From assembly GCA_964016885.1 (NCBI GenBank), contig OZ024742.1, forward strand, positions 101,060,001-101,124,000: DNA of 64,000 bases. Direction: 5' to 3'. A program made the translations under genes and the position numbers. Below, piece by piece: positions 1 to 44,974 of the stretch (position 1 is its first letter; the number at the start of each line of letters is the position of its first letter). Under the pieces are notes generated by a model that was not told the origin of the DNA, ran no database searches, and saw only the letters and a program-made list of their open reading frames with translations. This DNA comes from Eledone cirrhosa. Its lineage: Eukaryota.

Positions 1-3000
1 TCATATACACCACCACACCACAACTACTACTGTGTCATATACACAACCACACCACAACTACTACTGTGTCATATACACCACACCACAACTACTGCTGTGT
101 CATATACACCACACCACAACTACTACTATGTCATTTACACCACCACACCACAACTACTACTGTGTCATATACACCACACCACAACTACTGCTGTGTCATA
201 TACACCACACCACAACTACTACTATGCCATATACACCACCACACTACAACTACTACTGTGTCATATACACCACCACACCACAAGTTCTACTATGTCGTAT
301 ACACCACCACACCACAACTACTACTATGTCATATACACCACCACACCACAACCACTACTGTGTCATATACACCACCACACCACAACTACTACTGTGTCAT
401 ATACACCACCACAACTACTACTATGTCATACACACCACACCACAACTACTACTGTGTCATATACACCACCACACCACAACTACTACTGTGTCATATACAC
501 CACCACACCACAACTACTACTGTGTCATATACACCACCACACCACAACTACTACTGTGTCATACACACCACCACACCACAACTACTACTGTGTCATATAC
601 ACCACCACACCACAACTACTACTGTGTCATATACACCACCACACCACAACTACTACTGTGTCATATACACCACCACACCACAACTACTACTGTGTCATAT
701 ACACCACACCACAACTACTGCTGTGTCATATACACCACACCACAACTACTACTATGTCATTTACACCACCACACCACAACTACTACTGTGTCATATACAC
801 CACACCACAACTACTGCTGTGTCATATACACCACACCACAACTACTACTATGTCATATACACCACCACACTACAACTACTACTATGTCATATACACCACA
901 CCACAACTACTACTATGTCATATACACCACCACACTACAACTACTACTGTGACAAATACACCACCACACCACAACTACTACTATGTCATATACACTACAC
1001 CACAATTACTACTGTGTCATATACACTACACCACAACTACTACTGTGTCATATACACCACACCACAACTACTACTGTGTCATATACACACCACACCACAA
1101 CTACTACTGTGTCATATACACCACCACACCACAAGTTCTACTATGTCGTATACACCACCACACCACAACTACTACTATGTCATATACACCACCACACCAC
1201 AACCACTACTGTGTCATATACACCACCACACCACAACTACTACTGTGTCATATACACCACCACAACTACTACTATGTCATACACACCACACCACAACTAC
1301 TACTGTGTCATATACACCACCACACCACAACTACTACTGTGTCATATACACCACCACACCACAACTACTACTGTGTCATATACACCACCACACCACAACT
1401 ACTACTGTGTCATACACACCACCACACCACAACTACTACTGTGTCATATACACCACCACACCACAACTACTACTGTGTCATATACACCACCACACCACAA
1501 CTACTACTGTGTCATATACACCACCACACCACAACTACTACTGTGTCATATACACCACACCACAACTACTACTGTGTCATATACACCACACCACAACTAC
1601 TACTGTGTCATATACACCACCACACCACAACTACTGCTGTGTCATATACACCACACCACAACTACTACTATGTCATATACACCACACCACAACTACTACT
1701 GTGTCATATACACCACACCACAACTACTACTATGTCATATACACCACACCACAACTACTACTGTGTCATATACACCACACCACAACTACTACTGTGTCAT
1801 ATACACCACACCACAACTACTACTGTGTCATATACACCACACCACAACTACTACTGTGTCATATACACCACCACACCACAACTACTACTGTGTCATATAC
1901 ACCACCACACCACAACTACTACTGTGTCATATACACCACACCACAACTACTACTGTGTCATATACACCACACCACAACTACTACTGTGTCATATACACCA
2001 CACCACAACTACTACTATGTCATATACACAACACCACAACTACTACTGTGTCATATACACCACACCACAACTACTACTGTGTCATATACACCACACCACA
2101 ACTACTACTGTGTCATATACACCACACCACAACTACTACTGTGTCATATACACCACACCACAACTACTACTATGTCATATACACCACACCACAACTACTA
2201 CTGTGTCATATAGACCACACCACAACTACTACTGTGTCATATACACCACACCACAACTACTACTGTGTCATATTCACCACACCACAACTACTACTATGTC
2301 ATATACACCACACCACAACTACAACTGTGTCATATACACCACACCACAACTACTACTGTGTCATATACACCACACCACAACTACTACTATGTCATACACA
2401 CCACCACACCACAACTACTACTGTGTCATATACACCATACTACAACTACTACTGTGTCATATACACCACACCACAACTACTACTATGTCATATACACCAC
2501 CACACCACAACTACTACTGTGTCATATACACCACACTACAACTACTACTGTGTCATATGCACCACCACAACTACTACTATGTCATATACACCACACTACA
2601 ACTACTACTGTGACAAATACACCACCACACCACAACTACTACTATGTCATATACACTACACCACAATTACTACTGTGTCATATACACTACACCACAACTA
2701 CTACTGTGTCATATACACCACACCACAACTACTACTATGTCATATACACCACCACACCACAACTACTACTGTGTCATATATACCACCACACCACAACTAC
2801 TACTGTGTCATATACACCACCACAACTACTACTGTCTCATATACACCACCACACCACAACTACTACTATGTCATATACACCACCACAACTACTACTGTGT
2901 CATATACACCACAACACAACTACTACTGTGTCATATACACCACACCACAACTACTACTATGTCATATACACCACACCACAACTACTACTATGTCATATAC

Positions 3001-6000
3001 ACCACCACACCACAACTACTACTATGTCATATACACCACCACACCACAACTACTACTGTGTCATATACACCACACTACAACTACTACTGTGTCATATGCA
3101 CCACCACACCACAACTACTACTATGTCATATACACTACACCACAATTACTACTGTGTCATATACACTACACCACAATTACTACTGTGTCATATACACCAC
3201 CACAACTACTACTGTGTCATATACACCACACCACAACTACTACTAAGTCATATACACCACACCACAACTACTACTGTGTCATATGCACCACCACAACTAC
3301 TACTATGTCATATACACCACACTACAACTACTACTGTGACAAATACACCACCACACCACAACTACTACTATGTCATATACACTACACCACAACTACTACT
3401 GTGTCATATACACCACCACAACTACTACTGTGTCATATACACCACACCACAACTACTACTGTGTCATATACACCACCACACCACAACTACTACTGTGTCA
3501 TATACACCACCACAACTACTACTGTTTCATATACACCACCACACCACAACTACTACTGTGTCATATACACCACCACACCACAACTACTACTATGTTATAT
3601 ACACCACCACACCACAACCACTACTGTGTCATATACACCACCACACCACAACTACTACTGTGTCATATACACCACCACACTACAAGTACTACTCTTTCAT
3701 ATACACACCACACCACAACTACTACTGTGTCATATACACCACCACACCACAACTACTACTGTGTCATATACACCACCACAACAACTACTACTGTGTCATA
3801 TACACCACCACACCACAACTACAACTGTGTCATATACACCACCACACCACACCACAACTACTACTGTGTCATATACACCACACAACAACTACTACTATGT
3901 CATATACACCACACCACAACTACTACTGTGTCATATACACCACCACACCACAACTACTACTGTGTCATATACACCACCACAACAACTACTACTGTGTCAT
4001 ATACACCACCACACCACAACTACAACTGTGTCATATACACCACCACACCACACCACAACTACTACTGTGTCATATACACCACACAACAACTACTACTATG
4101 TCATATACACCACCACAACTACTACTGTGTCATATACACCACCACAACTACTACTATGTCATATACACCACACCTCAACTACTACTGTGTCATATACACC
4201 ACACAACAACTACTACTATGTCATATACACCACACCTCAACTACTACTGTGTCATATACACCACACAACAACTACTACTGTGTCATATACACCACACAAC
4301 AACTACTACTATGTCATATACACCACCACACCACAACTACTACTGTGTCATATACACCACTACAACTACTACTGTGTCATATACACCACACCACAACTAC
4401 TACTATGTCATATACACCACACCACAACTACTACTATGTCATATACACCACCACACCACAACTACTACTATGTCATATACACCACCACACCACAACCACT
4501 ACTGTGTCATATACACCACCACACCACACCACAACTACTACTCTGTCATATACACACCACACCACAACTACTACTGTGTCATATACACCACCACACCACA
4601 ACTACTACTTTGTCATATACATCACCACAACTACTACTATGTCATATACACCACACCACAACTACTACTGTGTCATATACACCACCACACCACAACTACT
4701 ACTGTGTCATATACACCACACCACAACTACTACTGTGTCATATACACCACCACACTACAACTACTACTGTGTCATATACACCACACCACAACTACTACTG
4801 TGTCATATACACCACACCACAACTACTACTGTGTCATATACACCACACCACAACTACTACTGTGTCATATACACCACACCACAACCACTACTGTGTCATA
4901 TACACCACCCCACAACTACTACTGTGTCATATACACCACCACACCACAACTACTACTGTGTCATATACCCCACACCACAACTACTACTGTGTCATATACA
5001 CCACACCACAACTACTACTGTGTCATATACACCACACCACAACTGCTACTGTGTCATACACATCACACCACAACTACTACTGTGTCATATACACCACACC
5101 ACAACTACTACTGTGTCATATACACCACCACACCACAACTACTACTGTGTCATATACACCACCATACTACAACTACTACTGTGTCATATACACCACCACA
5201 CCACAACTACTACTGTGTCATATTCACCACCACAACTACTACTATGTCATACACACCACCACACCACAACTACTACTGTGTCATACACACCACCACCCCA
5301 CAACTGCTACTATGTCATACACACCACCACACCACAACTACTACTATGTCATATACACCACACCACAACTACTACTGTGTCATACACACCACCACACCAC
5401 AACTACTACTATGTCATATACACCACCACACTACAACTACTACTGTGACACATACACCACCACACTTCAACTACTACTGTGTCATACACACCACCACACC
5501 ACAACCACTACTGTGTCATATACACCACACCACAACTACTACTGTGTCATATACACCACACCACAACTACTACTATGTCATATACACCACCACACTACAA
5601 CTACTACTATGTCATATACACCACACCACAACTACTACTATGTCATATACACCACCACACTACAACTACTACTGTGACACATACACCACCACACTTCAAC
5701 TACTACTGTGTCATACACACCACCACACCACAACCACTACTGTGTCATATACACCACACCACAACTACTGCTGTGTCATATACACCACACCACAACTACT
5801 ACTATGTCATTTACACCACCACACCACAACTACTACTGTGTCATATACACCACACCACAACTACTGCTGTGTCATATACACCACACCACAACTACTACTA
5901 TGTCATATACACCACCACACTACAACTACTACTATGTCATATACACCACACCACAACTACTACTATGTCATATACACCACCACACTACAACTACTACTGT

Positions 6001-9000
6001 GACAAATACACCACCACACCACAACTACTACTATGTCATATACACTACACCACAATTACTACTGTGTCATATACACTACACCACAACTACTACTGTGTCA
6101 TATACACCACACCACAACTACTACTGTGTCATATACACACCACACCACAACTACTACTGTGTCATATACACCACCACACCACAAGTTCTACTATGTCGTA
6201 TACACCACCACACCACAACTACTACTATGTCATATACACCACCACACCACAACCACTACTGTGTCATATACACCACCACACCACAACTACTACTGTGTCA
6301 TATACACCACCACAACTACTACTATGTCATACACACCACACCACAACTACTACTGTGTCATATACACCACCACACCACAACTACTACTGTGTCATATACA
6401 CCACCACACCACAACTACTACTGTGTCATATACACCACCACACCACAACTACTACTGTGTCATACACACCACCACACCACAACTACTACTGTGTCATATA
6501 CACCACCACACCACAACTACTACTGTGTCATATACACCACCACACCACAACTACTACTGTGTCATATACACCACCACACCACAACTACTACTGTGTCATA
6601 TACACCACACCACAACTACTGCTGTGTCATATACACCACACCACAACTACTACTATGTCATTTACACCACCACACCACAACTACTACTGTGTCATATACA
6701 CCACACCACAACTACTGCTGTGTCATATACACCACACCACAACTACTACTATGTCATATACACCACCACACTACAACTACTACTATGTCATATACACCAC
6801 ACCACAACTACTACTATGTCATATACACCACCACACTACAACTACTACTGTGACAAATACACCACCACACCACAACTACTACTATGTCATATACACTACA
6901 CCACAATTACTACTGTGTCATATACACTACACCACAACTACTACTGTGTCATATACACCACACCACAACTACTACTGTGTCATATACACACCACACCACA
7001 ACTACTACTGTGTCATATACACCACCACACCACAAGTTCTACTATGTCGTATACACCACCACACCACAACTACTACTATGTCATATACACCACCACACCA
7101 CAACCACTACTGTGTCATATACACCACCACACCACAACTACTACTGTGTCATATACACCACCACAACTACTACTATGTCATACACACCACACCACAACTA
7201 CTACTGTGTCATATACACCACCACACCACAACTACTACTGTGTCATATACACCACCACACCACAACTACTACTGTGTCATATACACCACCACACCACAAC
7301 TACTACTGTGTCATACACACCACCACACCACAACTACTACTGTGTCATATACACCACCACACCACAACTACTACTGTGTCATATACACCACCACACCACA
7401 ACTACTACTGTGTCATATACACCACCACACCACAACTACTACTGTGTCATATACACCACACCACAACTACTACTGTGTCATATACACCACACCACAACTA
7501 CTACTGTGTCATATACACCACCACACCACAACTACTGCTGTGTCATATACACCACACCACAACTACTACTATGTCATATACACCACACCACAACTACTAC
7601 TGTGTCATATACACCACACCACAACTACTACTATGTCATATACACCACACCACAACTACTACTGTGTCATATACACCACACCACAACTACTACTGTGTCA
7701 TATACACCACACCACAACTACTACTGTGTCATATACACCACACCACAACTACTACTGTGTCATATACACCACCACACCACAACTACTACTGTGTCATATA
7801 CACCACCACACCACAACTACTACTGTGTCATATACACCACACCACAACTACTACTGTGTCATATACACCACACCACAACTACTACTGTGTCATATACACC
7901 ACACCACAACTACTACTATGTCATATACACAACACCACAACTACTACTGTGTCATATACACCACACCACAACTACTACTGTGTCATATACACCACACCAC
8001 AACTACTACTGTGTCATATACACCACACCACAACTACTACTGTGTCATATACACCACACCACAACTACTACTATGTCATATACACCACACCACAACTACT
8101 ACTGTGTCATATAGACCACACCACAACTACTACTGTGTCATATACACCACACCACAACTACTACTGTGTCATATTCACCACACCACAACTACTACTATGT
8201 CATATACACCACACCACAACTACAACTGTGTCATATACACCACACCACAACTACTACTGTGTCATATACACCACACCACAACTACTACTATGTCATACAC
8301 ACCACCACACCACAACTACTACTGTGTCATATACACCATACTACAACTACTACTGTGTCATATACACCACACCACAACTACTACTATGTCATATACACCA
8401 CCACACCACAACTACTACTGTGTCATATACACCACACTACAACTACTACTGTGTCATATGCACCACCACAACTACTACTATGTCATATACACCACACTAC
8501 AACTACTACTGTGACAAATACACCACCACACCACAACTACTACTATGTCATATACACTACACCACAATTACTACTGTGTCATATACACTACACCACAACT
8601 ACTACTGTGTCATATACACCACACCACAACTACTACTATGTCATATACACCACCACACCACAACTACTACTGTGTCATATACACCACCACACCACAACTA
8701 CTACTGTGTCATATACACCACCACAACTACTACTGTCTCATATACACCACCACACCACAACTACTACTATGTCATATACACCACCACAACTACTACTGTG
8801 TCATATACACCACAACACAACTACTACTGTGTCATATACACCACACCACAACTACTACTATGTCATATACACCACACCACAACTACTACTATGTCATATA
8901 CACCACCACACCACAACTACTACTATGTCATATACACCACCACACCACAACTACTACTGTGTCATATACACCACACTACAACTACTACTGTGTCATATGC

Positions 9001-12000
9001 ACCACCACACCACAACTACTACTATGTCATATACACTACACCACAATTACTACTGTGTCATATACACTACACCACAATTACTACTGTGTCATATACACCA
9101 CCACAACTACTACTGTGTCATATACACCACACCACAACTACTACTAAGTAATATACACCACACCACAACTACTACTGTGTCATATGCACCACCACAACTA
9201 CTACTATGTCATATACACCACACTACAACTACTACTGTGACAAATACACCACCACACCACAACTACTACTATGTCATATACACTACACCACAACTACTAC
9301 TGTGTCATATACACCACCACAACTACTACTGTGTCATATACACCACACCACAACTACTACTGTGTCATATACACCACCACACCACAACTACTACTGTGTC
9401 ATATATACCACCACAACTACTACTGTTTCATATACACCACCACACCACAACTACTACTGTGTCATATACACCACCACACCACAACTACTACTATGTTATA
9501 TACACCACCACACCACAACCACTACTGTGTCATATACACCACCACACCACAACTACTACTGTGTCATATACACCACCACACTACAAGTACTACTCTTTCA
9601 TATACACACCACACCACAACTACTACTGTGTCATATACACCACCACACCACAACTACTACTGTGTCATATACACCACCACAACAACTACTACTGTGTCAT
9701 ATACACCACCACACCACAACTACAACTGTGTCATATACACCACCACACCACACCACAACTACTACTGTGTCATATACACCACACAACAACTACTACTATG
9801 TCATATACACCACACCACAACTACTACTGTGTCATATACACCACCACACCACAACTACTACTGTGTCATATACACCACCACAACAACTACTACTGTGTCA
9901 TATACACCACCACACCACAACTACAACTGTGTCATATACACCACCACACCACACCACAACTACTACTGTGTCATATACACCACACAACAACTACTACTAT
10001 GTCATATACACCACCACAACTACTACTGTGTCATATACACCACCACAACTACTACTATGTCATATACACCACACCTCAACTACTACTGTGTCATATACAC
10101 CACACAACAACTACTACTATGTCATATACACCACACCTCAACTACTACTGTGTCATATACACCACACAACAACTACTACTGTGTCATATACACCACACAA
10201 CAACTACTACTATGTCATATACACCACACCACAACTACTACTGTGTCATATACACCACCACAACTACTACTGTGTCATATACACCACCACAACTACTACT
10301 ATGTCATATACACCACCACAACTACTACTGTGTCATATACACCACCACAACTACTACTGTGTCATATACACCACACAACAACTACTACTATGTCATATAC
10401 ACCACACCACAACTACTACTGTGTCATATACACCACCACAACTACTACTATGTCATATACACCACACCTCAACTACTACTGTGTCATATACACCACACAA
10501 CAACTACTACTGTGTCATATACACCACCACACCACAACTACAACTGTGTCATATACACCACACAACAACTACTACTGTGTCATATACACCACCACACCAC
10601 AACTACAACTGTGTCATATACACCACACCACAACTACTACTGTGTCATATACACCACCACAACTACTACTGTGTCATATACACCACACCACAACTACTAC
10701 TGTGTCATATACACCACACCACAACTACTACTGTGTCATATACACCACCACACCACAACTACTACTGTGTCATATACACCACACAACAACTACTACTGTG
10801 TCATATACACCACCACACCACAACTACTACTGTGTCATATACACCACCACACCACAACTACAACTGTGTCATATACACCACACCACAACTACTACTGTGT
10901 CATATACACCACCACAACTACTACTGTGTCATATACACCACACCACAACTACTACTGTGTCATATACACCACACCACAACTACTACTGTGTCATATACAC
11001 CACCACACCACAACTACTACTGTGTCATATACACCACCACAGCACAACTACTACTGTGTCATATACACCACACCACAACTACTACTGTGTCATACACACC
11101 ACCACACCACAACTACTACTGTGTCATATACACCACCACAACTACTACTATGTCATATACACCACACCACAACTACTACTGTGTCATATACACCACCACA
11201 ACTACTACTATGTCATATACACCACCCCACAACTACTACTGTGTCATATACACCACACCACAACTACTACTGTGTCATATACACCACACCACAACTACTA
11301 CTGTGTCATATACACCACACCACAACTACTACTATGTCATATACACCACCCCACAACTACTACTGTGTCATATACACCACCACAACTACTACTATGTCAT
11401 ATACACCACCCCACAACTACTACTGTGTCATATACACCACACCACAACTACTACTATGTCATATACACCACCACACCACAACTACTACTGTGTCATATAC
11501 ACCACCACACCACAACTACTACTGTGTCATATACACCACCACACCACAATGACTACTGTGTCATATACACCACACCACAACTACTACTATGTCATATACA
11601 CCACCACACCACAACTACTACTGTGTCATATACACCACCACACCACAATGACTACTGTGTCATATACACCACACCACAACTACTACTATGTCATATACAC
11701 CACCACACCACGACTACTACTGTGTCATATACACCACCACACCACAATGACTACTGTGTCATATACACCACACCACAACTACTACTATGTCATATACACC
11801 ACCACACCACAACTACTACTGTGTCATATACACCACCACACCACAATGACTACTGTGTCATATACACCACACCACAACTACTACTATGTCATATACACCA
11901 CCACACCACAACTACTACTGTGTCATATACACCACCACACCACAATGACTACTGTGTCATATACACCACACCACAACTACTACTATGTCATATACACCAC

Positions 12001-15000
12001 CACACCACAACTACTGCTGTGTCATATACCCCACACCACAACTACTACTGTGCCATATACACCACACCACAACTACTACTGTGTCATATACACCACCACA
12101 CTACAACTACTACTGTGTCATATACACCACCACACCACAACTACTACTCTGTCATATACACCACACCACAACTACTACTGTGTCATATACACCACAACAC
12201 AACTACTACTATGTCATATACACCTCACCACAACTACTACTGTGTCATATACACCACACCACAACTACTACTGTGTCATATACACCACCACACCACAACT
12301 ACTACTGTGTCATATACACCACACCACAACTACTACTATGTCATATACACCACCACACCACAACCACTACTGTGTCATATACACCACACCACAACTACTA
12401 CTGTGTCATATACACCACACCACAACTACTACTATGTCATATACACCACCACACCACAACCACTACTGTGTCATATACACCACACCACAACTACTACTAT
12501 GTCATATACACCACCACACCACAACTACTACTGTGTCATATACACCACACCACAACTACTACTATGTCATATACACCACACCACAACTACTACTGTGTCA
12601 TATACACCACCACACCACAACTACTACTATGTCATATACACCACCACACCACAACTACTACTGTGTCATATACACCACACCACAACTACTACTATGTCAT
12701 ATACACCACCACACCACAACTACTACTGTGTCATATACACCACCACACCACAACTACTACTATGTCATATACACCACCACACCACAACTACTACTGTGTC
12801 ATATACACCACTACAACTACTACTGTGTCATATACACCACACCACAACTACTACTGTGTCATATACACCACACCACAACTACTACTATGTCATATACACC
12901 ACCACACCACAACTACTACTGTGTCATATACACCACCACACCACAACTACTACTGTGTCATATACACCACCACACCACAACTACTACTATGTCATATACA
13001 CCACCACACCACAACTACTACTGTGTCATATACACCACCACACCACAACTACTACTATGTCATATACACCACCACACCACAACTACTACTGTGTCATATA
13101 CACCACTACAACTACTACTGTGTCATATACACCACACCACAACTACTACTGTGTCATATACACCACACCACAACTACTACTATGTCATATACACCACCAC
13201 AACTACTGCTGTGTCATATACACCACCACACCACAACTACTACTGTGTCATATACACCACCACACCACAACTACTACTGTGTCATATACACCACACCACA
13301 ACTACTACTGTGTCATATACACCACCACACCACAACTACTACTGTGTCATATACACCACCACAACTACTACTGTGTCATATACACCACCACACCACAACT
13401 ACTACTGTGTCATATACACCACCACACCACAACTACTACTGTGTCATATACACCACCACACCACAACTACTACTGTGTCATATACACCACACCACAACTA
13501 CTACTGTGTCATATACACCACACCACAACTACTACTATGTCATATACACCACCACACCACAACTACTACTGTGTCATATACACCACCACACCACAACTAC
13601 TACTGTGTCATATACACCACCACAACTACTACTGTGTCATATACACCACCACACCACAACTACTACTATGTCATATACACCACCACAACTACTACTGTGT
13701 CATATACACCACCACACCACAACTACTACTGTGTCATATACACCACCACACCACAACTACTACTGTGTCATATACACCACCACACCACAACTACTACTAT
13801 GTCATATACACCACCACACCACAACTACTACTGTGTCATATACACCACTACAACTACTACTGTGTCATATACACCACACCACAACTACTACTGTGTCATA
13901 TACACCACACCACAACTACTACTATGTCATATACACCACCACAACTACTACTGTGTCATATACACCACCACACCACAACTACTACTGTGTCATATACACC
14001 ACACCACAACTACTACTGTGTCATATACACCACACCACAACTACTACTGTGTCATATACACCACACCACAACTACTACTGTGTCATACACACCACCACAA
14101 CTACTACTGTGTCATATACACCACCACACCACAACTACTACTATGTCATATACACCAACCCACAACTACTACTGTGTCATATACACACCACCACAACTAC
14201 TACTATGTCATATACACCATACTACAACTACTACTGTGTCATATACACCACCACACCACAACTACTACTATGTCATATACACCACACCACAACTACTACT
14301 GTGTCATATACACACCACCACAACTACTACTATGTCATATACACCACACCACAACTACTACTGTGTCATATACACACCACCACAACTACTACTATGTCAT
14401 ATACACCATACTACAACTACTACTGTGTCATATACACCACCACACCACAACTACTACTATGTCATATACACCAAACCACAACTACTACTATGTCATATAC
14501 CCCACCACACTACAACTACTACTGTGACACATATACCACCACACAACAACTACTACTAAGTCATATACACTACACCACAACTACTACTGTGTCATATACA
14601 CCACACCACAACTACTACTGTGTCATATACACCACACCACAACTACTACTGTGTCATATACACCACACCACAACTACTACTGTGTCATATACACCACACC
14701 ACAACTACTACTGTGTCATATACACCACCATAACTACTACTGTGTCATATACAGCACACCTCAACTACTACTGTGTCATACACACCACCACACCACAACT
14801 ACTACTATGTCATATACACCACACCACAACTACTACTGTGTCATATACACCACCACACCACAACTACTACTATGTCATATACACCACCCCACAACTAAGA
14901 CTGTGTCATATACACCACCACACCACAACTACTACTATGTCATATACACCACACCACAACTACTACTGTGTCATATACACCACCACACCACAACTACTAC

Positions 15001-16533
15001 TGTGTCATATACACCACACCACAACTACTACTGTGTCATATACACCACCACACCACAACTACTACTATGTCATATACACCACACCACAACTACTACTGTG
15101 TCATATACACCACCACACCACAACTACTACTGTGTCATATACAGCACACCACAACTACTACTGTGTCATATACACCACCACACCACAACTACTACTGTGT
15201 CATATACAGCACACCACAACTGCTACTGTGTCATACACATCACACCACAACTACTACTGTGTCATACACACCACCACACCACAACTACTACTATGCCATA
15301 TACACCACACCACAACCACTACTGGGTCATATACACCACCACACCACAACTACTACTATGTCATATACACCACCACAACTATTACTATGTCATATACATC
15401 ACCACACCACAACTAATTCTGTGTCATATACACCACACCACAACTACTACTGTGTCATATACACCACCACACCACAATTTCTACTATGTCATATACACCA
15501 CACCACACCACAACTACTACTCTGTCATATACACCACCACACCACAACTACTACTGTGTCATATACACCACCACACCACAATTTCTACTATGTCATATAC
15601 ACCACCATACCACAACTACTACTCTGTCATATACACCACCACACCACAATTTCTACTATGTCATATACACCACACCACACCACAACTGCTACTATGTCAT
15701 ATACACCACCACACCACAACTACTACTCTGTCATATACACCACCACACCACAACTACTACTGTGTCATATACACCACCACACCACAATTTCTACTATGTC
15801 ATATACACCACCACACCACAACTGCTACTATGTCATATACACCACCACACCACAACTACTACTATGTCATATACACCACCACACCACAACTACTACTCTG
15901 TCATATACACCACCACACCACAACTACTACTGTGTCATATACACCACCACACCACAATTTCTACTATGTCATATACACCACACCACACCACAACTACTAC
16001 TCTGTCATATACACCCCCACACCACAACTACTGCTGTGTCATATACACCACCACACCACAACTACTACTCTGTCATATACACCACCACACCACAACTACT
16101 ACTGTGTCATATACACCACCACACCACAATTTCTACTATGTCATATACACCACACCACACCACAACTACTACTCTGTCATATACACCACCACACCACAAC
16201 TACTGCTGTGTCATATACACACCACACCACAACTGCTACTATGTCATATACACCACCACACCACAACTACTACTCTGTCATATACACCACCACACCACAA
16301 CTACTACTGTGTCATATACACACCACACCACAACTGCTACTATGTCATACACACCACCACACCACAACTACTACTGTGTCATATACACCACCATACCACA
16401 ACTACTACTGTGTCATATACACCACACCACAACTACTACTATGTCATACACACCACACCACAACTGCTACTATGTTATATACACCACACCACAACTACTA
16501 CTATGTCATATACACCACCACACCACAACTACT
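1..16533. repeat. C/A-rich minisatellite array, unit ~TGTCATATACAC(CAC)CACACCACAACTACTACT(G/A), 29/31/34-bp variants; runs off the window start
   Basis: Unit read directly hundreds of times. Rare variants (gacaaata, caagttct, tagacc, caatgact) recur at fixed 851-, 5901- and 99-bp offsets. Confidence 0.98.
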
Positions 16534-18004
16534 GTCTCAAGCAAATGACAAAAAAGGAAGTGCTTGAATTTGAACAGTGCATAGCAACAAATCCTGACAG
16601 TAAGGTGTTCTGGAAATATATTCATTCAAAGCAGAGACCTCACCCTCCAGTTGGTCCCCTTCGCAATCTTCACACAAGCCAGATCATTGACGATCCCAAC
16701 GAATACGCAGAACTCATTGCTGAGTGCTATACAAGCATTTTTACTGTTGAAAACCAGAATGTACCATCTCCACTACCTCTAACATCAAATTCCATAACAA
16801 CTATGGAATTTACACCTGCAATGTTGCGGCGTCACCTTAAAAATAAGCGCAGCTATGCTTCCCCTGATCTTGATACTGTCTCAACAATGGTGCTACTCCG
16901 GAGCAGTGGAAAACTGCCAGTGTCATTCCCCTGTTCAAAAAGGGCGACCGCATGTCACCTGTCAACTATCGTCCAGTCAGTCTTACTAGCTGTAATGCCA
17001 ACCTGATGGAATCCTGTGTCTGAGAAACTCTTTGGAACTTCTGGAACTCTCACAGCTTCATCCGGTCCTTGCAGTTTGGATTTATCCCTAACTCCAGCTG
17101 CTGTTATCAGCTTATATAGTTCCTTGAAGACATTACCCGGATCACTGACAGTGGGTCATGGGTGGATGTTGTTTACCTTGACTTTGCGAAAGTTTTCATT
17201 TCTGTGCCACACAAAAGGCTTATGGCAAAACTCTCTGCAATGAGTGTGAGGGATGATATTTTTAACTGGTTGAAATCCTTCATTCTCAGCCGAAAAGAGG
17301 TAGTCACGGTTCTAGGACAGGATTCTTCACCATATGAGATGTCATTTGGTGTACCACAGGGATCTGTTCTTGGTCCCCTTTTGTTTGTGGCATATATTAA
17401 TGACATAAATGCCAACTTAAAGAATGCCACGGTACTGAAATATGCAGATGACATCAAGCTGTACCTTGAAATCAAAAGGACTGATCCTGAAATCTACAAC
17501 TCTTTCCTACAATCAGACCTGGTCACAATGCAGCAATGGATCACAGACTGGCAACTGAAGCTGGCTGTGGACAAGTGTACCACCATGCATTTTGGGAGGA
17601 AAAATCCAGCGTCCACATACTCCCTCCACAACACTGATATCAAGAAGTCCTCTTGTGAACGTGACTTGGGCATTACTGTCAGCAGCGATCTGTGTTGGAC
17701 AAAGCGTGTCTCTAAGATTGTCAAGAAGGACGAGGGTGTCTTGGCATCACTCAGCAGGGACCTTTGTTAGCCGCTCTCCAGCCATCTATTTAAAGCTGTA
17801 TACAGCTATGGTACGACCACACTTGGAATTCGCATCATCAGTCTGGAATCCCTATCTTGCTCAGAACATTGACCTCCTGGAAACTGTTCAGAGATGTGCA
17901 ACCAAGCGCATACCTTCCATCAGACACCTACCATACTCTGAACGCTATGCTTCCCTGGGCATGGATTCATTGAAGCTCCGACGTCTGGCAATGGACTTGG
18001 TAAA
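16534..18004 (+). mobile_element. CR1/L2-type non-LTR retrotransposon ORF2 (reverse transcriptase) fragment, frameshifted, truncated at both ends
   Basis: Translated motifs NPDSKVFWKY, WKTASVIPLFKKGD..NYRPVSLTS, DVVYLDFAKVF, GVPQGSVLGPLLF, KYADDIKLY, LYTAMVRPHLEFASSVWNPY across three frames. Confidence 0.92.
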
Positions 18005-32239: not shown

Positions 32240-35160
32240 GCGTCTGTGTCCAAATGTGCTCGTTTGAGTCGATCAATAGAAACCGTCTCTCAGGAACCCT
32301 TAATGTCTACAGTGAAATGTTTCTCGGAACGAGCTAATACACGGTAGGGTCCAGAGTACGGTTGTGTGAGAGGTGGTCTCACAGCATCGTTTCTCACGAA
32401 CACATGGGTCCACGAGGCAATATCCCTCGGGACTGCAGATTTTACAGTTTGCTTCCTCATATCCATCGGTGGCAGGTCCTGAAAATAAGAACGCAGACGG
32501 GATACGTGGGAAAGCGGATCCTGTGCAGAAGATCAACAGGGGCAAGCATTTTCCCAGGTAACGCTAGAGGAGCACCATATAATAATTCGGCCGGGGAGAA
32601 CCCAAGGTCCTCCTTTATTGTTGACCGAATCCCCACCAACACAATAGGGAGGTACTTGCTCCAACACGTAGAGTCAGGAGAAGTCCGTAGAGCGGCTTTT
32701 AGTTGTCGGTGGAAGCGCTCCACCATTCCATTAGATGCAGGATGATATGCAGTCGTTCGGATGCGTTTAGCGCCGATGATCTTCGTTAATTCATGGAAGA
32801 GATTCTATTCAAACTGTCTTCCACGGTCCGTGGTAATCGTGGTTGGCACTCCAAAGCGAGCAATCCATCCTGATACTAGGGCACGCGCTGTTGTTTCAGC
32901 AGTGATGTCTTTCAAGGGGATGGCTTCAGGCCATCGCGAAAAACGATCAATAACAGTCAATAGATAAGTATGACCACCACTGACTGGCCAAGGTCCCACG
33001 ATGTCCACATGAATGTGCCGTAAACGGGCGTCCGGTGTACTGAAAGTACCGAGCGGAGCCTTACGTGTTTATGGATTTTTTAATACTGGCAAGCGATGCA
33101 GGAAAGGCATCAAGCAGTAATATCGCGCTTCCTATTTGGCAAAAAGAATCTGGCTGTTATGAGCTTTACTGTGGCAGAAGATCCTGGGTGGGAAATGCTG
33201 TGTAAAGCAAGAAACACAGTACGACGATGGTTTAGCGGGACGAATGGTCTCGGTGAATCCACGGAAACGTCGCAGAGAATCTGTCCGTCTGCGGTGGGCA
33301 ATGGCAGGTATTTCAAATTACTCGTCGCAAATTCGGCTGATGTAATATCCAACGATTCCAGTGCAGGCTGGTCTGCTGCCAAGTGATTTAAATCGATGTC
33401 GTGGGATGACGCAATTGAACTGATCGGCAATCGAGACATGGCGTCAGCCGCTGTGTTCAATGAGCCTGGAATGTGTTGGATGTCGTTTGTGAATTGAGAG
33501 ATGAGGTCGAGATGTTTAGTTTCTCTGGGTGAGTATTTGTTGGCCTTTGCTCGCAAGGCGAATGTCAACGGCTTGTGGTCCGTGAAGATGGTGAACGTTC
33601 TTCCTTCAAGCATGTGCGAAAACTGCTTCACCGATAAGTATTTAGCTAACAACTCCCGTCCAAAGGTGCTGTAGCTGGTTTTGGCAGGTTTCAGCCTCCT
33701 GGAGAAAAATTCCAACGGTTGCTGTTAATCATTCCTACTTTGTTGCAAAACTGCGCCCATGGCAGTATCCGACGCATCAACACAAAGCGAAAGCTTAGCA
33801 TTGGACACTGGGTGAGCCAGCAAAGATGCATTGGCTAGAGCAATTTTCGCATTCTCAAAATCCTCGAGCTGAGTTTCATTCAAAGAAATGTCTTTATTTT
33901 TCTTTCGGCAATTTTTCAAAATTTCCGTCAAATTTGCGTCATAATTAGGCACAAACCGCCTATAAAAATTAATCAGCCCCAAGAATTGGCGCAACTGACG
34001 GAGTGAGGTTGGTGGAGGAAAATCGTCTATAGCTTTAACTCTCTCAGGAATAGATCGAATACCATCAGAGTCAATGACATGACCTAAAAAATTCAGTGAT
34101 TCCGCACCGAAAACACATTTTGTGGGATTTATTTGAACACTGTAATCCTTGAGTCGACAAAACAAAAGAATCAAATGACGTATGTGTTCTTCTCTGGAGG
34201 AATTAGCAATAAGCAGATCATTAATATAAGTGTAGACGAAGTCTAAACCACGAGTGACCTCATCCATGAACCGTTGAAAGGTGCTAACAGTATTCCTAAG
34301 TCCGAAAGGCATGGTAAGAAATTTGAATGATCCAAATGGAGTGGTAATGGCTGTTTTCGGAATATCTTCTTTCCTGACAGGAATCTGATGATAGGCTCGC
34401 ACCAAATCGAGCTTCGAGAAAATTTTACATCCCTGCAACGACGATGCAAAATCTTGCAGGTGTGGCATAGGGTATCTATCCGGGACAGTTATAGCATTTA
34501 ACTTCCTATAATCCCCAGTGTGTCTCCAGTCGCCAGAAGTCTTGGGTACCATGTGTAACGGAGAAGCCCAAGGACTCGTAGAAGGGCGCAGCATGTAGTC
34601 GAACTCGGACCGTGCTGCTTTCAATTTGTCCGCAGGCAAGCGACGAGGACGTGAGAACACTGGGGCGCCAGTTGTAGAGATAAAATGCTCCATTGTGTGA
34701 GTCGGTTCGACAACTCGAAAATTTCCCTGAGTAAGCTGTAGGAAAGAATTCAACAATGCATGATAGGGATTCCCAGCATTAGCGATGAAAAAGGTCGGGC
34801 TAACCGTTGGAAAATTAGCTTTCTGGCCACGAAGAGAAAAACCAGTAATGTCGTCTACTAGGCGTCGGCCACGGACGTCCACCATCAATGAAAAATGGTG
34901 TCGAAAATCCGCTCCCAAGATCGGGTATGGTAGATCAGCAACCGTAAAAATCAATTTGAATTCTCGTCGAAGATTTCTGAATTGCAGAGGAAGCGAGATT
35001 TGTCAAAAAGTCCGTATCGGCGAATGATTGACAGCTTGTAGATTCATTGATGACTCAGGAGGAGTTTCTTTAACACAGTTCACTGGCCAAATGCTGCAGG
35101 AGGCTCCCGTATCTACGAGGAAGGATCTTCCAGGCAGGAAGTCCTCTATGAAGAAATGTC
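32240..35160 (-). pseudogene. Gypsy pol remnants: protease, RT, RNase H, integrase
   Basis: FLVDTGASCSIWP (~35090-35125), [91 protein letters not shown]. Confidence 0.92.
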
Positions 35161-35196
35161 GGTTCTGTTGTGTCTCGCAGAGTTCACTTGCCGCCT

Positions 35197-35511
35197 TTAG
35201 TGACTCTGATCTACATTTCTCGAAGCTGAATATTTACATGGAGGCCGGCAATGTTTTGCTTTATCCGCGAAGGTGGCATGATACCAGCAAAATAATGGAT
35301 TGCTGGCGGGCGAAGTAGTATGCTGACGTGAAATCGCGAAAGAACGCGAACGACTCTTAGGCCGCCAGGAATACGGCCTATTCTCCCTGCATAACCGAGT
35401 GACTTGCTGCGTCAAAGTGTCAATAGCTTTTAACATGGCATCCTCGCGTGTCGAGACGAGCTGGTTCGAATGTGAAGAAGAAGCAGGTAAATTAGGACCA
35501 CTCATTGTCAA
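35197..35511 (-). pseudogene. Gypsy gag C-terminal remnant with CHCC zinc knuckle
   Basis: SR-rich stretch followed by CWYHATFADKAKHCRPPC. Confidence 0.82.
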
Positions 35512-35968
35512 TCTGTTTCAACTTGGACGTATAAAAGTAAGTGATATTCACGTAAAAAGAATGCAGAAATTTCTTTAGTTGTTCAGAACAACGGGAAAAC
35601 TACACAAATTTCCTTCAACATCCATGAAGAAAGAAGAAATGCAAAATCCGGAATCGACAAGTCACAATAATTCAAGGCAGAAAAATTAAATGTTTTTTTT
35701 TGTTTTTTTTTTTAATTGGAGAAGGGGATGGCATGAGATGATGTGTCTCAGCCAATCAGATGTCTGCATTTCGGAGAAGAAAGACAATTAGCGGGAAAAT
35801 TGGCGGACCAGTTAGCCATTGTGAATTTTTTTTTGTGTTAAACGAACAATTTTCAATTTCGTTATTTTCGCATAGTTGCAAGAAATAAAATATTAGTTTC
35901 GTCAAATTTTTTTTTTCTATGTTTCTCTAGAAGTTTTTAGAAGTCTTTTTTAGAAGGCTGTGTAATGC

Positions 35969-40387: not shown

Positions 40388-42590
40388 ATCATCATCATCA
40401 TCATCACCGTTTTACGTCTATTCTTCCACGCTAGCATGGGTTAGACGGGTTGTCCTGTTGTGGGCAGTGTCCAGTCGGCTGATCTTGTCTTGCTCATACG
40501 GGAACTGATTCTGGCTTGATTTCTACAGCTGGATGCCCTTCTTCACACTAACCTCATTTACAGTGAATGCTGGGTGCTTTTTTTCTGTGGTGCGTACATG
40601 TTCACTTTACAGTGTGGGCTGGGTGCTTTTTTGCCGTAGCACCTCCATGACCACTTTGCAGTGGGAGGGAGTGGGATCATATTGCCTATATGCTTCAGCT
40701 TCGGCTTGTACCCGTGGGAAGTCAGGTCTTCTGTATTACTGCGTGACGCCAGAGGTCACCGTCATGTGTCATCGCCCTTGAGAGGTGCAATTGGGTAAGG
40801 TCGGCTTTTATCACCTCATCCCAGGTCTTCTTGGGTCTCTCCGCTCCATGGTTTCCATTGACTTCTAGTGCTCTGCACCTTTTTATGCAGCTGTCATCCT
40901 TCATACGCATCACATGTTTAAACCAAGGCAACCTCCTCTCCTGCATGCAGCATTTGATTCCTCTTATGCTCAGTCTCTCTCTCAATTCGTTTATGCTTTG
41001 CTGTTCGCGTATATTATTATTACACATCCATTGGAGCATGCAGGCTTCGTTTCTTTCTAATCTACATAAGTCTTCCACCTTCAGCGCCCAGGTCTCACTA
41101 CCATGCAACATTGCTGTTCGTATACACGTATCATACAGTCTGCCTTTCATTTTGAGGGAAAAGCCTTTTGCAGCTAGCAGTGGTAGTAGTTCCCTGAACT
41201 TCTTTCATCCCGTTCTTACCCTAGTTATTGTACTTTCCAAACACCCACCTTTGCTGCTAATTCGCTCACCTAGGTAACAGAAGCTGTCTACTATTTCTAC
41301 AGAGCCCTCCCAGAGTTTGGTGGTACTTGTTTCCTGTGGTCGTTTGCTGCTTGCTGTCCTGGTGCAGCTGCTACATATAAAGTCTACATTCTTAGTTAAG
41401 CTTCCTGAGATCCCACTACATCTCTTGTGCACCCATTGTTTGCATTTGGGGCAGAGGATGGAGTTCCTACCTACACCTTTCCTACATACTGAGCAAGGCC
41501 ATTTCCCTGGGGGGATCTGGGTTCTGTTTTCTCGTCTACTTACAAGGACCTTAGTCTTTGTCAGGTTGACTTTGAGACCCTTTCTTTCTAGTCCCTGCTT
41601 CCATGTTTGAAATTTCTTCTCTAATTCCAGCATAGATTCAGCTTTAAGTGCGTGATCATCTGCATATAGGAGTTCCCAAGGGCATCCGGTCTTAACTCCT
41701 CCATTATTGCCTGCAAAACTATAATGAACAGGAAAGGGCTAAGAACATAGCCCTGGTGGACACCGACCTGTATGCTAAATTCCTCGTTATAGTCATTGCT
41801 AACCCTAACTTTGCTGGCTGCTCCTCTATACATGGCTTGTACAGCTTTCACAAGCCATTCATCTACTCCTAATTTTCTAAGAGCCAACCAGATTATAGCA
41901 CTAGGCACTCTGTTGAAGGCTTTTTCCAGATCGACGAATGCCAGGTAGAGCGGCTTACTTTTAGCTAGGTACTTTTCCTGTCACTGCCTCACAAGAAAGA
42001 GGGCATCAGTGGTGCCCTTTCCTGGTACAAACCCAAATTGCATCTCATCTAGTTTTACCCGGTCCCTAATCAACTGTGTTATAACTCTTTATGGTCCATT
42101 AGCTTTATACCTCCATAGTTTCCTCTATCTAGTGCATCACCTTTACCCTTGTAGCAGTTGACAATGATGCTGCTGCACCAATCCTTTGATATGACACCTT
42201 CTAGTATTACCTGGTTAACAATACGTGTGGTTATGGTGTGACCTACTGACCCAGATGCATTCAGCATCTCAGCAGCTATACTCGATGGACCGGTTGCCTT
42301 CCCGTCTTCATATCTTTGATTGCCTTACTTACTACGCTGCTGCTGACTTGTACTGCTGGTCCCTCTATAGGGTCCACTTGGGGTAGGGTCTCTTTTTCCC
42401 ATGCATTCTCCTCATTTAATAATCTTTCATAATTGCTCTTCCACGCATCTTTTTTCCCAGCACTTGTGAGAGCAAGGTCACCTTTATCCTTCCAGATACA
42501 CTTCTCTCCAATGACATCACAATTCTCTCTGACACACTGCCTCGCAATCTGGAACACCTCCTGTTTCTGGTCCTCACGTTGCAAAACATG
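40388..42590 (-). mobile_element. RTE LINE, 5'-truncated and frameshifted, with its 3' UTR and (ATG)n tail
   Basis: ORF pieces DWCSSIIVNCYKGKGDALDRGNY, GVHQGYVLSPFLF, a PHD-like finger, DSFCYLG, MLHGSETW..RRLPWFKHVMR..RPKKTW, then a tail shared with the SINEs. Confidence 0.92.
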
Positions 42591-42624
42591 CTTGAATTAT
42601 ATATGTGAATATATATATATATAT

Positions 42625-42790
42625 ATCATCATCATCATCATCATCATCATCTTCGTTTAACGTCCATCTTCCATGCTAGCATGGGTTAGACTTGAGGTAA
42701 GGCTGGTCGGGTGGCCGTGTCTTGCTCATATAGGACTATCTGGCAGGTTTTCTACAGCTGGATGCCCTTCCTAACTCCAACACACTCCTC
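42625..42790 (-). mobile_element. RTE/SINE 3' tail fragment
   Basis: (CAT)n-gtttaacgtccatcttccatgctagcatgggttag..ctggatgcccttcc. Confidence 0.78.
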
Positions 42791-42836
42791 CTTATATATA
42801 TATGTATGTATAAATATATATATGTATGTATATATA

Positions 42837-42875
<39 letters not shown>

Positions 42876-42942
42876 ACGTACATACATATATGTATACAGT
42901 GCGCTATCAATAAAATAGGGAAAAAAAAACACTGACTAAGGA

Positions 42943-42985
42943 ACGATGAACTAGTTTCTAGCTTATTAGCTGTCATCAGCACTGT
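42943..42985 (-). ncRNA. Minimal hammerhead ribozyme motif, slightly degenerate
   Basis: Minus strand acagtg-CTGATGA-cagct aata agcta-GAAA-ctag-TT-catcgt; one mismatch each in stems I and II. Confidence 0.5.
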
Positions 42986-43020
42986 ATACCTTCCTGTCAG
43001 TCGATTGAACGTTTGAAAGT

Positions 43021-43516
43021 ATATACTTTCCTTATGCATATTAACGGCTGAGTAGCTAAATTTACATATCGAGTGAGTTAGTCAGCCGGGTGTACCGAAA
43101 ACGATAAATTGAAAAAATGAAATTTCATTTCTCACTCTTAGTACGGCTGATACCTAAATATAAGTATGTATACGTACATACATATATGTGTACAGACATA
43201 CACTAGTATGTATATACATACATGCACATATATATATATATATGTACGTATGGGTTTACCATTATAATAAATGTTCGGTAAACCCATACATACATATATA
43301 TGTGTGTGCATGTATGTATGTATATACACACTAGTGTATGTCTGTACACATATATGTATGTACGTATACATACTTATATTTAAGTATCAGCCGTACTAAG
43401 AGTGAGAAATGAAATTTCATTTTTTCCATTTATCGTTTTCGGTACGTCCGACCGACTAACTCATTCGGTATGCAAATTAGGCTGCTCAGCCGTTAATATG
43501 CATAAGGAAAGTATAT
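43021..43516. repeat. Long inverted repeat, ~240-bp arms, 16-nt spacer
   Basis: 43021-43260 is the imperfect reverse complement of 43277-43516. Confidence 0.92.
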
Positions 43517-43575
43517 ATATAAAATCTATCACAGAAAAGCTTGAACCGTTAAGGTATCTTTTCTTGGTTATGTCA

Positions 43576-43676
43576 ATATTTATAAAACAAACTTTGTATT
43601 TTATCTGATGAGAGCATACCAAAGTTTTGGTACCCTTGAAATATATATAATAGAATAAATATGGTTTTATAAATAT
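43576..43676 (+). ncRNA. Minimal type I hammerhead ribozyme (Penelope/retrozyme-type)
   Basis: Stem I tattttat/atagaata plus a distal 13-bp arm; CTGATGA 43605; stem II taccaaa/tttggta; GAAA 43638; 2-bp stem III with palindromic ATAT loop; predicted cleavage after 43649. Confidence 0.65.
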
Positions 43677-44012
43677 AGTTTCCATTTATTTAATATCATC
43701 GTCTATATATATATATATATTATTTTATTTATTAATTCATCATTGAGCCACATCGTGAATGGTTGCCAAAACATATATATATGTGACTTTGTCTAGTTTG
43801 TGTATATGTAAATCTTTATATTTGATAATCTCCCATAAGGTTGAGATGCAATTTAGGCAATATTGGGCTGCGCTTTCTAGCAACCAGACCACTCGCTGTA
43901 AGGCACCAATTACATTCTTTCTGACTTGACCACTGCCACGTTACAGTTCTTAGCCATTTTGAATTCGTTTCAGGCGGGGATCATTTAAGAAAAATCTTTG
44001 TCCAAGTGAGTT

Positions 44013-44096
44013 TGTTTCCTGATGAGTTCGAAGCTCGAGAATTTATCCTTGATAGGATATTTCCGAAAGCGAATGAAACCCTAAAGGGTAGAAACA
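44013..44096 (+). ncRNA. Type I hammerhead ribozyme, complete fold
   Basis: Stem I tgtttc/gaaaca; CTGATGA 44019; stem II gttcg/cgaat with inner hairpin tatcct/aggata; GAAA 44075; stem III accct-aa-agggt; GUA cleavage after 44090. Confidence 0.8.
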
Positions 44097-44388
44097 TAAT
44101 CCTGGTATGTGTATATGTATTATTTCTTCTAACTTTCATTTTATACCTAATTATGTATGGTTGACAGTATATTTAATCGATTTCCACGTGCTATTGAAAT
44201 GTTGGGTAAATATTCTATGCCGGTTGATCGCGAATAGATGGCTGTCATTTATTTATCTACTATTTCTTCATAGGTGCCTGTTAATCTTATAGCCTGGTTT
44301 AATTGGTTTTTTGTGTGGTTGATTATGCTAATTGGGAGAGGAAATGGTATATATATATTATCAAATGATTCTATGGACATACTTTATA

Positions 44389-44440
<52 letters not shown>

Positions 44441-44799
44441 CACGATAAATTAACGGAGCCATAGGCCCTTGCTATTCCCTGTAAATAATGTGCTCAAAGG
44501 AGAAGAAATCCTGAGCTCTTTAAAATACAATATGTTGGAAAGGTAACAATAATCCATTTCTTTCAACAAATTACTGGTGAAACATATCTTAGGATTGGTA
44601 TCTTTGGATTTGTACATGTGTTATATAGTTATAAAGGTATTTATTTACGCTTTAATTTATATTTTTAATTATCGTGTCTATAGTCTGCCTTTCATAGGTT
44701 ATAGATTCCATGCACCAGTGTTTTTTTTTCCCTATTTTATTGATAGCGCACTGTATGTATATCTCTCTCTGGTGTGTTACCTTTCCAACATATTGTATG

Positions 44800-44974
<175 letters not shown>

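Follow-up and report, generated by a model that had tools for sequence, protein, structure and literature searches.

Positions 42897 to 44753 of the window (the whole 64,000-nucleotide stretch of Eledone cirrhosa DNA analyzed here) carry hammerhead ribozyme motifs on both strands, a long palindrome and a perfect pair of inverted repeats, set among TA microsatellites. The longest stop-free stretch in this unit spans 82 codons, in agreement with the first-pass annotation, which had reported no ORF. That annotation offered two readings of the unit: an undescribed ribozyme-bearing composite element with Tc1-like terminal inverted repeats (TIRs), or nested insertions into TA tracts. Elsewhere the window contains a 16.5-kb satellite in which 31- and 34-bp units alternate (1-16539), a 4.4-kb ACC-rich array of 8-bp units with extreme strand skew (18131-22496), broken minus-strand frames presumably derived from a Ty3/Gypsy pol gene, judging from their motifs (32457-35517), and minus-strand fragments presumably of RTE LINE type (40722-42790). 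The RTE-like fragments are followed, directly left of the TA tract, by an (ATC)n-tailed repeat that has 26 matches in the 400-kb background set described below.

Reading from left to right, the locus begins in a (TA)n-type microsatellite (42793..42865), likely part of the original target tract, and continues on the minus strand with the 3' end of a repeat family termed A (42866..42899), which lies outside the unit of the first-pass annotation and matches the common end of the family. A 28-nt piece of family D sequence (42900..42927, minus strand) precedes the body of A (42928..43260, minus strand; unit and tandem period ~425 bp), which contains the left palindrome arm. Next comes an inverted, head-to-head arm of A (A'; 43277..43517, plus strand) that ends before its hammerhead. 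Family B (43526..43699, plus strand) is 5'-truncated and stops at its common end in (TA)7, and family C (43719..44389, plus strand) comprises nearly one full unit (period ~682 bp) and ends in (TA)n. A further (TA)n stretch (44390..44437) separates the 3' ends of C and D. Family D (unit and tandem period ~554 bp) is present as an inverted arm on the minus strand (44438..44548) and a plus-strand body (44549..44795) that is 5'-truncated inside its hammerhead and holds the right-hand 'TIR' (44716-44753) internally. A (TA)n microsatellite (44796..44970) forms the right flank.

The unit was searched as a whole and in parts against the source assembly, a 3.0-Gb animal genome. The whole 1857-bp query returned one full-length match, namely itself, and many partial matches. 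By this search and by patterns spanning the junctions, the composite is present once, as are the junctions from D to A and from A to B. Module-wise searches, which are samples in that the best 40 of 1424 to 13305 candidates were scored per search, gave each module its own many relatives at 92-98% identity (best relatives of A to D at 95-98%), with matches that stop at the module borders: 42928-43517 for A, 43526-43699 for B, 43719-44389 for C and 44438-44795 for D. At the level of sequence comparison, these searches show the locus to be four unrelated high-copy hammerhead repeat families, side by side in one TA microsatellite. Positions 42897..44753 are not one ribozyme-carrying DNA transposon, and the Tc1/MITE reading fails: the supposed composite is a single copy built from four separate families, and its 38-bp repeat is internal to one of them.

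Each family was then characterized across its other loci. Adjacent partial tandem copies accompany A at 25/29 loci, C at 18/29 and D at 8/27 (two overlapping D loci were dropped), and B at 0/29, where the query was the 176-bp piece from the window. Adjacent inverted copies occur at 15/29 A, 8/29 B, 2/29 C and 13/27 D loci. An end in a microsatellite was found for C in 19/30 cases, for B in 24/42 and for D, at one end, in 14/30, and most of the others run on in the family. B and D each use two alternative ends ~90 nt apart. These end tallies are uneven in quality, with 18/36 D inner ends unclassified and the tallies for A noisy because its anchor is of low complexity. Exact word counts give at least 277 copies in the assembly for a C 21-mer from the third hammerhead and at least 704 for a D 24-mer. 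The families may already be catalogued in repeat libraries or paper supplements. Two B loci share a long upstream block, and the one examined contained only LINE-type frames.

The long hairpin reported earlier was recovered, with arms of 241 nt (43020-43260 and 43277-43517) at 91% identity, and from its sequence we identify the palindrome as the inverted arm of family A. The arms differ at 10/41 positions within one patch (43053-43093 and 43444-43484) and are nearly identical elsewhere. Over that patch, 3-7 changes separate each arm from typical copies, and at other loci the inverted arms show 0-5 differences.

A descriptor scan placed the three hammerhead motifs of the first-pass annotation, one on the minus strand and two on the plus strand, where it had put them. 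Hammerhead 1 (42943..42985, minus strand) is of minimal type I with a palindromic helix III; its core C3 is at 42979, its predicted cleavage base at 42949 (GUU), and the 3' strand of stem I ends at 42943, 9 nt inside the left repeat. It carries one stem I mismatch where most A copies pair. The common A form near this copy has the GUU triplet, and more diverged relatives have GUA. Hammerhead 2 (43597..43657, plus strand; type I, 8-bp stem I, palindromic helix III) has its core at 43605 and is predicted to cleave after 43649 (AUA). Hammerhead 3 (44013..44096, plus strand; type I, extended stem II) has its core at 44019 and is predicted to cleave after 44090 (GUA). The segment between the last two predicted sites (43650-44090) does measure 441 nt, the length earlier given for a released RNA, yet such an RNA would join the end of B to the start of C and by its sequence corresponds to the unit-length monomer of no family. 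A fourth hammerhead, belonging to family D and overlooked in the first pass, lies 5'-truncated at 44550-44620; it retains GAAA (44579-44582) and the cleavage base (44614), has no CUGAUGA, and is interrupted inside stem II by D's own inversion. The locus holds at most one complete hammerhead per family; tandem copies with two motifs are found elsewhere (L017, L022, L032).

The first-pass annotation had regarded separate origins of the motifs as a sign against a composite, and each motif does map to a separate family. The core is kept in 27/31 A, 48/62 B-like and 24/34 D sequences, C copies elsewhere also carry the motif, and the palindromic helix III of B-like motifs varies among TATATA, TATGTA and TGCGCA. 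Motifs 1-3 are, on this comparison of copies, not chance matches, since each appears as a conserved member of a high-copy family. Rfam, which the first pass had proposed as a check, reports no hammerhead at this locus whether matches are cut at the gathering threshold or by E-value, nor any at the gathering threshold in the whole window or in four background stretches rich in motifs; its 104 weak matches in 42700-44900 are hairpin noise, none of them a hammerhead. Folded in isolation, only hammerhead 3 forms a hammerhead (z -2.5; 1/200 shuffles as good), and hammerheads 1 and 2 do not (z -0.3 and -0.2). The stem I prediction within 700 nt of surrounding sequence is ~0.03 for hammerhead 2 and 0.13 for hammerhead 3. 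Judging from its sequence, the GUU-triplet A hammerhead may be impaired as a ribozyme, although its family nevertheless spread. Minimal hammerheads of Penelope-like elements (PLEs) are described as cleaving poorly or needing protein (PMC11167929, PMC4209133), and 8/9 predicted frog retrozymes are reported not to have cleaved (bioRxiv 10.64898/2026.07.22.740005).

The inverted pair was examined from both sides. Tc1/mariner-derived MITEs have no ORF, are flanked by TA and carry short inverted repeats that begin with CAGTG. At the locus, 42897-42934 and 44716-44753 form an exact inverted pair (38/38), three further bases match outward and TA lies outside both, so that the earlier description of exact 38-bp repeats with TA flanks holds for the match itself; unlike the ends of MITEs, however, these repeats are not termini but lie inside a retroposon family, and the unit is single-copy. 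On the right, the 38-mer is internal to family D: 52/56 distinct sites keep D flank beyond the 'end', and the copy at the locus runs on outward in D to ~44795. On the left, positions 42866-42899 belong to family A, and a 32-base word from there (42868-42899, 29 bases of it outside the 'TIR') recurs in 27/29 A loci. The TA on either side of the pair belongs to A and D sequence in other copies. We rejected the repeats as element termini because homology continues beyond both ends (D on the right, A on the left), and likewise rejected Tc1/mariner MITE copies with the same ends in other flanks, as the unit and its junctions are single-copy in the assembly. All relatives seen of the 38-mer are family D. 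Convergent pairs of the motif do occur at 15/35 D loci (one place counted twice), where the two motifs belong to inverted insertions of D itself and enclose no A, B or C sequence.

Inspection of the left repeat reveals how it is put together. All 40 other A matches scored (94-96% identity) begin at 42928, seven bases inside the 'TIR', and of the 38 bases in the left copy 7 come from family A itself. Here 28 nt of D replaces ~155 nt of A between two microhomologies common to A and D copies, ATACAG (6 nt; 42894-42899) and AACACTG (7 nt; 42928-42934), which with the piece make up the left repeat; the junction is unique in the assembly. The piece carries a rare T allele, found at 6 other exact sites versus 704 with C, and the run-on into AACACTG is found in 0 intact D copies among 50 sites, one rearranged site having it. 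Because of the rare T allele and the AACACTG run-on, the donor would be this locus's own D copy, or the template of that copy.

Microhomology-mediated template switching copies a short nearby stretch in inverted orientation, replaces a longer stretch with it and leaves microhomology at both ends. The left piece differs from a plain templated insertion in that it lies 34 nt from the 3' end of a retroposon, where copying by the element's own reverse transcriptase (RT) is no less likely than copying by a repair polymerase.

The anatomy of the four families was compared with that of known ribozyme-bearing retroelements. The families share a conserved type I core, tandems (A, C and D), inverted neighbours, alternative ends (B and D), and AT-rich or microsatellite targets, features by which retrozymes and PLEs are recognized. 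Published descriptions of PLEs include partial tandems, an inverted 5'-truncated copy, an optional tail and (TA)n or AT-rich targets (PMC8557442, PMC3846280, PMC11167929), and PLE minimal hammerheads are described as having a palindromic helix III and often forming opposite-strand pairs (PMC4209133). Several traits of the locus match the pLTRs of EN+ PLEs with minimal hammerheads as portrayed in these four sources: copies are truncated at the 5' end, repeated in partial tandem and accompanied by an inverted neighbour, a tail at one end is optional, the targets are AT-rich or (TA)n, helix III is palindromic, and motif pairs on opposite strands lie 100-700 bp apart. The locus differs from that portrayal in having no ORF, in an optional extension of ~90 nt in B and D versus 30-40, and in the abutting of four families.

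Non-LTR retrozymes are non-coding tandem hammerhead units (PMC7229834) and have been argued to be non-autonomous PLE derivatives (bioRxiv 10.64898/2026.07.22.740005). Families A-D are like these retrozymes in their type I hammerhead, their non-coding AT-rich unit of a few hundred bases and their monomers, dimers and partial tandems. In contrast to those retrozymes, A-D occur for the most part as scattered single insertions that have inverted arms and end on TA tracts, the A and B hammerheads are minimal, not canonical, and two GIY-YIG families yielded no autonomous element with A-D repeats. Across 60 loci of these GIY-YIG families (30 each), A-D turned up only as neighbours, and no terminal repeat was shared. 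We consider A-D likely to be non-autonomous Penelope-like retroposons, where 'Penelope-like' rests on anatomy because no autonomous partner with A-D repeats was found.

A candidate for an active element type was found elsewhere in the assembly. At L229:1805-5980, an intact 1240-aa ORF lies between direct repeats with a minimal hammerhead, and many copies exist at 97-98% identity. The element ends on (TA)n at two sites ~70 nt apart, and an Asn-rich stretch in it resembles those reported for rotifer Penelopes. By eye, the ORF shows motifs of RT and of GIY-YIG; as a whole it has no match in Pfam or PDB, and Pfam searches with fragments gave weak GIY-YIG and RVT_1 matches, below cut-off, on 3/5. 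Its sequence makes this element a recently active candidate type, with repeats that do not match A-D.

Taken together, we read the locus as separate insertions of likely non-autonomous Penelope-like retroposons of families A-D into one TA tract, and the 38-bp pair as the likely result of a template switch, guided by microhomology, that copied a D piece from close by into A, and assign this combined reading a probability of roughly 0.85. Of the two earlier proposals, it is the nested insertions into TA tracts that the data support, with four families and ends on TA tracts. A Penelope-type RT/GIY-YIG protein acting in trans would nick AT-rich DNA and reverse-transcribe each RNA, beginning at a set internal position and in many cases using both DNA ends. 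Priming from both ends would yield partial tandems and head-to-head arms, such as the palindrome and D's inversion. The likely order is D first, then A into the adjacent TA tract, and B and C in between later. If D came first with A beside it, the donor would have lain ~300 bp from the nick, and a nascent strand could have switched to it and then returned; template switching during later repair would look the same as a switch during A insertion. The hammerheads would act in the tandem transcripts of their own families to give monomers of ~425, 554 and 682 nt, and the B/C fragment of 441 nt could at most arise by accident. Several observations weigh against this account. The two GIY-YIG families searched supplied no matching autonomous partner, and no listed contig or read bridges the junctions. 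Four families in a row are an unusual draw for separate insertions, since co-location of A-D at the 3-kb scale is not significant (Fisher p 0.14, 1.0, 0.14 and 0.49) and 0/29 B loci held another of the four families. Simple nesting also leaves the A' arm stopping where 31/33 other A copies run on, which needs a deletion.

The principal alternative is one retrotransposition episode with mixed templates, in which the RT would have hopped from A to D and back to A, perhaps also from C through B to A', and some or all of the mosaic would have gone in together. The D piece is oriented as a cDNA of D RNA would be, A', B and C are co-oriented, and A' is without its usual 3' end. Template jumps have been proposed for Penelope elements (PMC3846280). 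Ten close cross-family junctions, drawn from 12 loci picked for having neighbours, bear on both sides of the question. Two are direct junctions that lack a microsatellite, one joining D to A head to head at L067:1264-1556 and the other joining co-directional B and C at L002:2227-2403. The other eight contain a TA or AT-rich spacer, and at the locus B, C and D each terminate where their families usually do, in a TA run, as expected of independent target-primed insertions; C and D stand tail to tail across (TA)n. Copying from neighbouring DNA explains the private alleles equally well, and on balance we regard a single mixed-template episode as unlikely.

Far less probable is that the left 28-nt piece, or the mosaic as a whole, reflects an assembly or consensus error between AT-rich tracts. 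The left and right copies are identical over 41 nt where modules differ by 2-6% from their relatives, and no listed contig or read at 99% covers 42890-42913, the contigs and RAD reads giving a family-level signal; the available runs, however, are fragmented by repeats, share about half of the words and may come from another individual, identity over so few bases is not improbable, and clean microhomologies border both ends of the piece. Least probable, to the point of being negligible, is a Tc1-like MITE or composite moving as DNA between its 38-bp repeats with ribozymes as cargo, for although the pair is exact, ends in CAGTG and has TA on both sides, and a transposase could in principle use a chance end pair, the single-copy unit is refuted as a family in this assembly, both TAs and the sequence beyond them are A or D, the same motif lies inside hundreds of D copies (704 exact), and there is no ORF.

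To place the locus in its genomic context, the descriptor was applied to a background of 40 arbitrary 10-kb stretches (L129-L168), taken at round-number places on 12 large contigs and not a random draw. These 400 kb contained 25 type I hammerhead matches (one double count) versus 0, 1, 0, 0 and 1 in shuffles, representing ~16 insertions in 12/40 stretches and at least nine sequence families. Extrapolation gives ~190,000 motifs per genome, with a Poisson range of 120,000-280,000 that is too narrow because motifs come in pairs, and suggests that the genome holds on the order of 10^5 hammerhead motifs. Published counts, obtained with other descriptors, are ~9,000 in Xenopus, 5,000-6,000 in mussel and coral and at most 120,000 in the 28-Gb axolotl genome. 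A literature search found no report on hammerheads in cephalopod genomes, and the main text of a 2026 octopus repeat annotation contains no occurrence of 'ribozyme' or 'hammerhead'.

Hammerhead clusters like this one are ordinary in this genome. One arbitrary stretch (L143:1290-3330) contains three hammerhead families, each as a head-to-head pair, with six motifs in ~2 kb. Where a neighbouring A-D family is present it tends to abut, 8/14 lying within 150 bp (p ~5e-5 under a crude uniform null). The sequences of the direct cross-family junctions hint at template switching. A broader proposition would be that, during insertion, Penelope-type RTs of this genome combine templates from unrelated ribozyme families (A-D-A at this locus, D-A in L067, B-C in L002) and so generate perfect pseudo-TIRs and chimeric ribozyme retroposons de novo, the genome having on the order of 10^5 hammerheads from at least nine families, a density above the published cases cited here; we hold this only tentatively and think it more apt to be wrong than right.

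A ribozyme-carrying DNA transposon would have been a surprise, if true, and that reading fails. What the locus illustrates is that Penelope-like anatomy, together with a short and probably local copy, can pass for a Tc1 MITE and lead annotation astray. The direct cross-family junctions offer a handle on the later steps of PLE integration, which are poorly known, and the intact 1240-aa element is on hand to test those steps.
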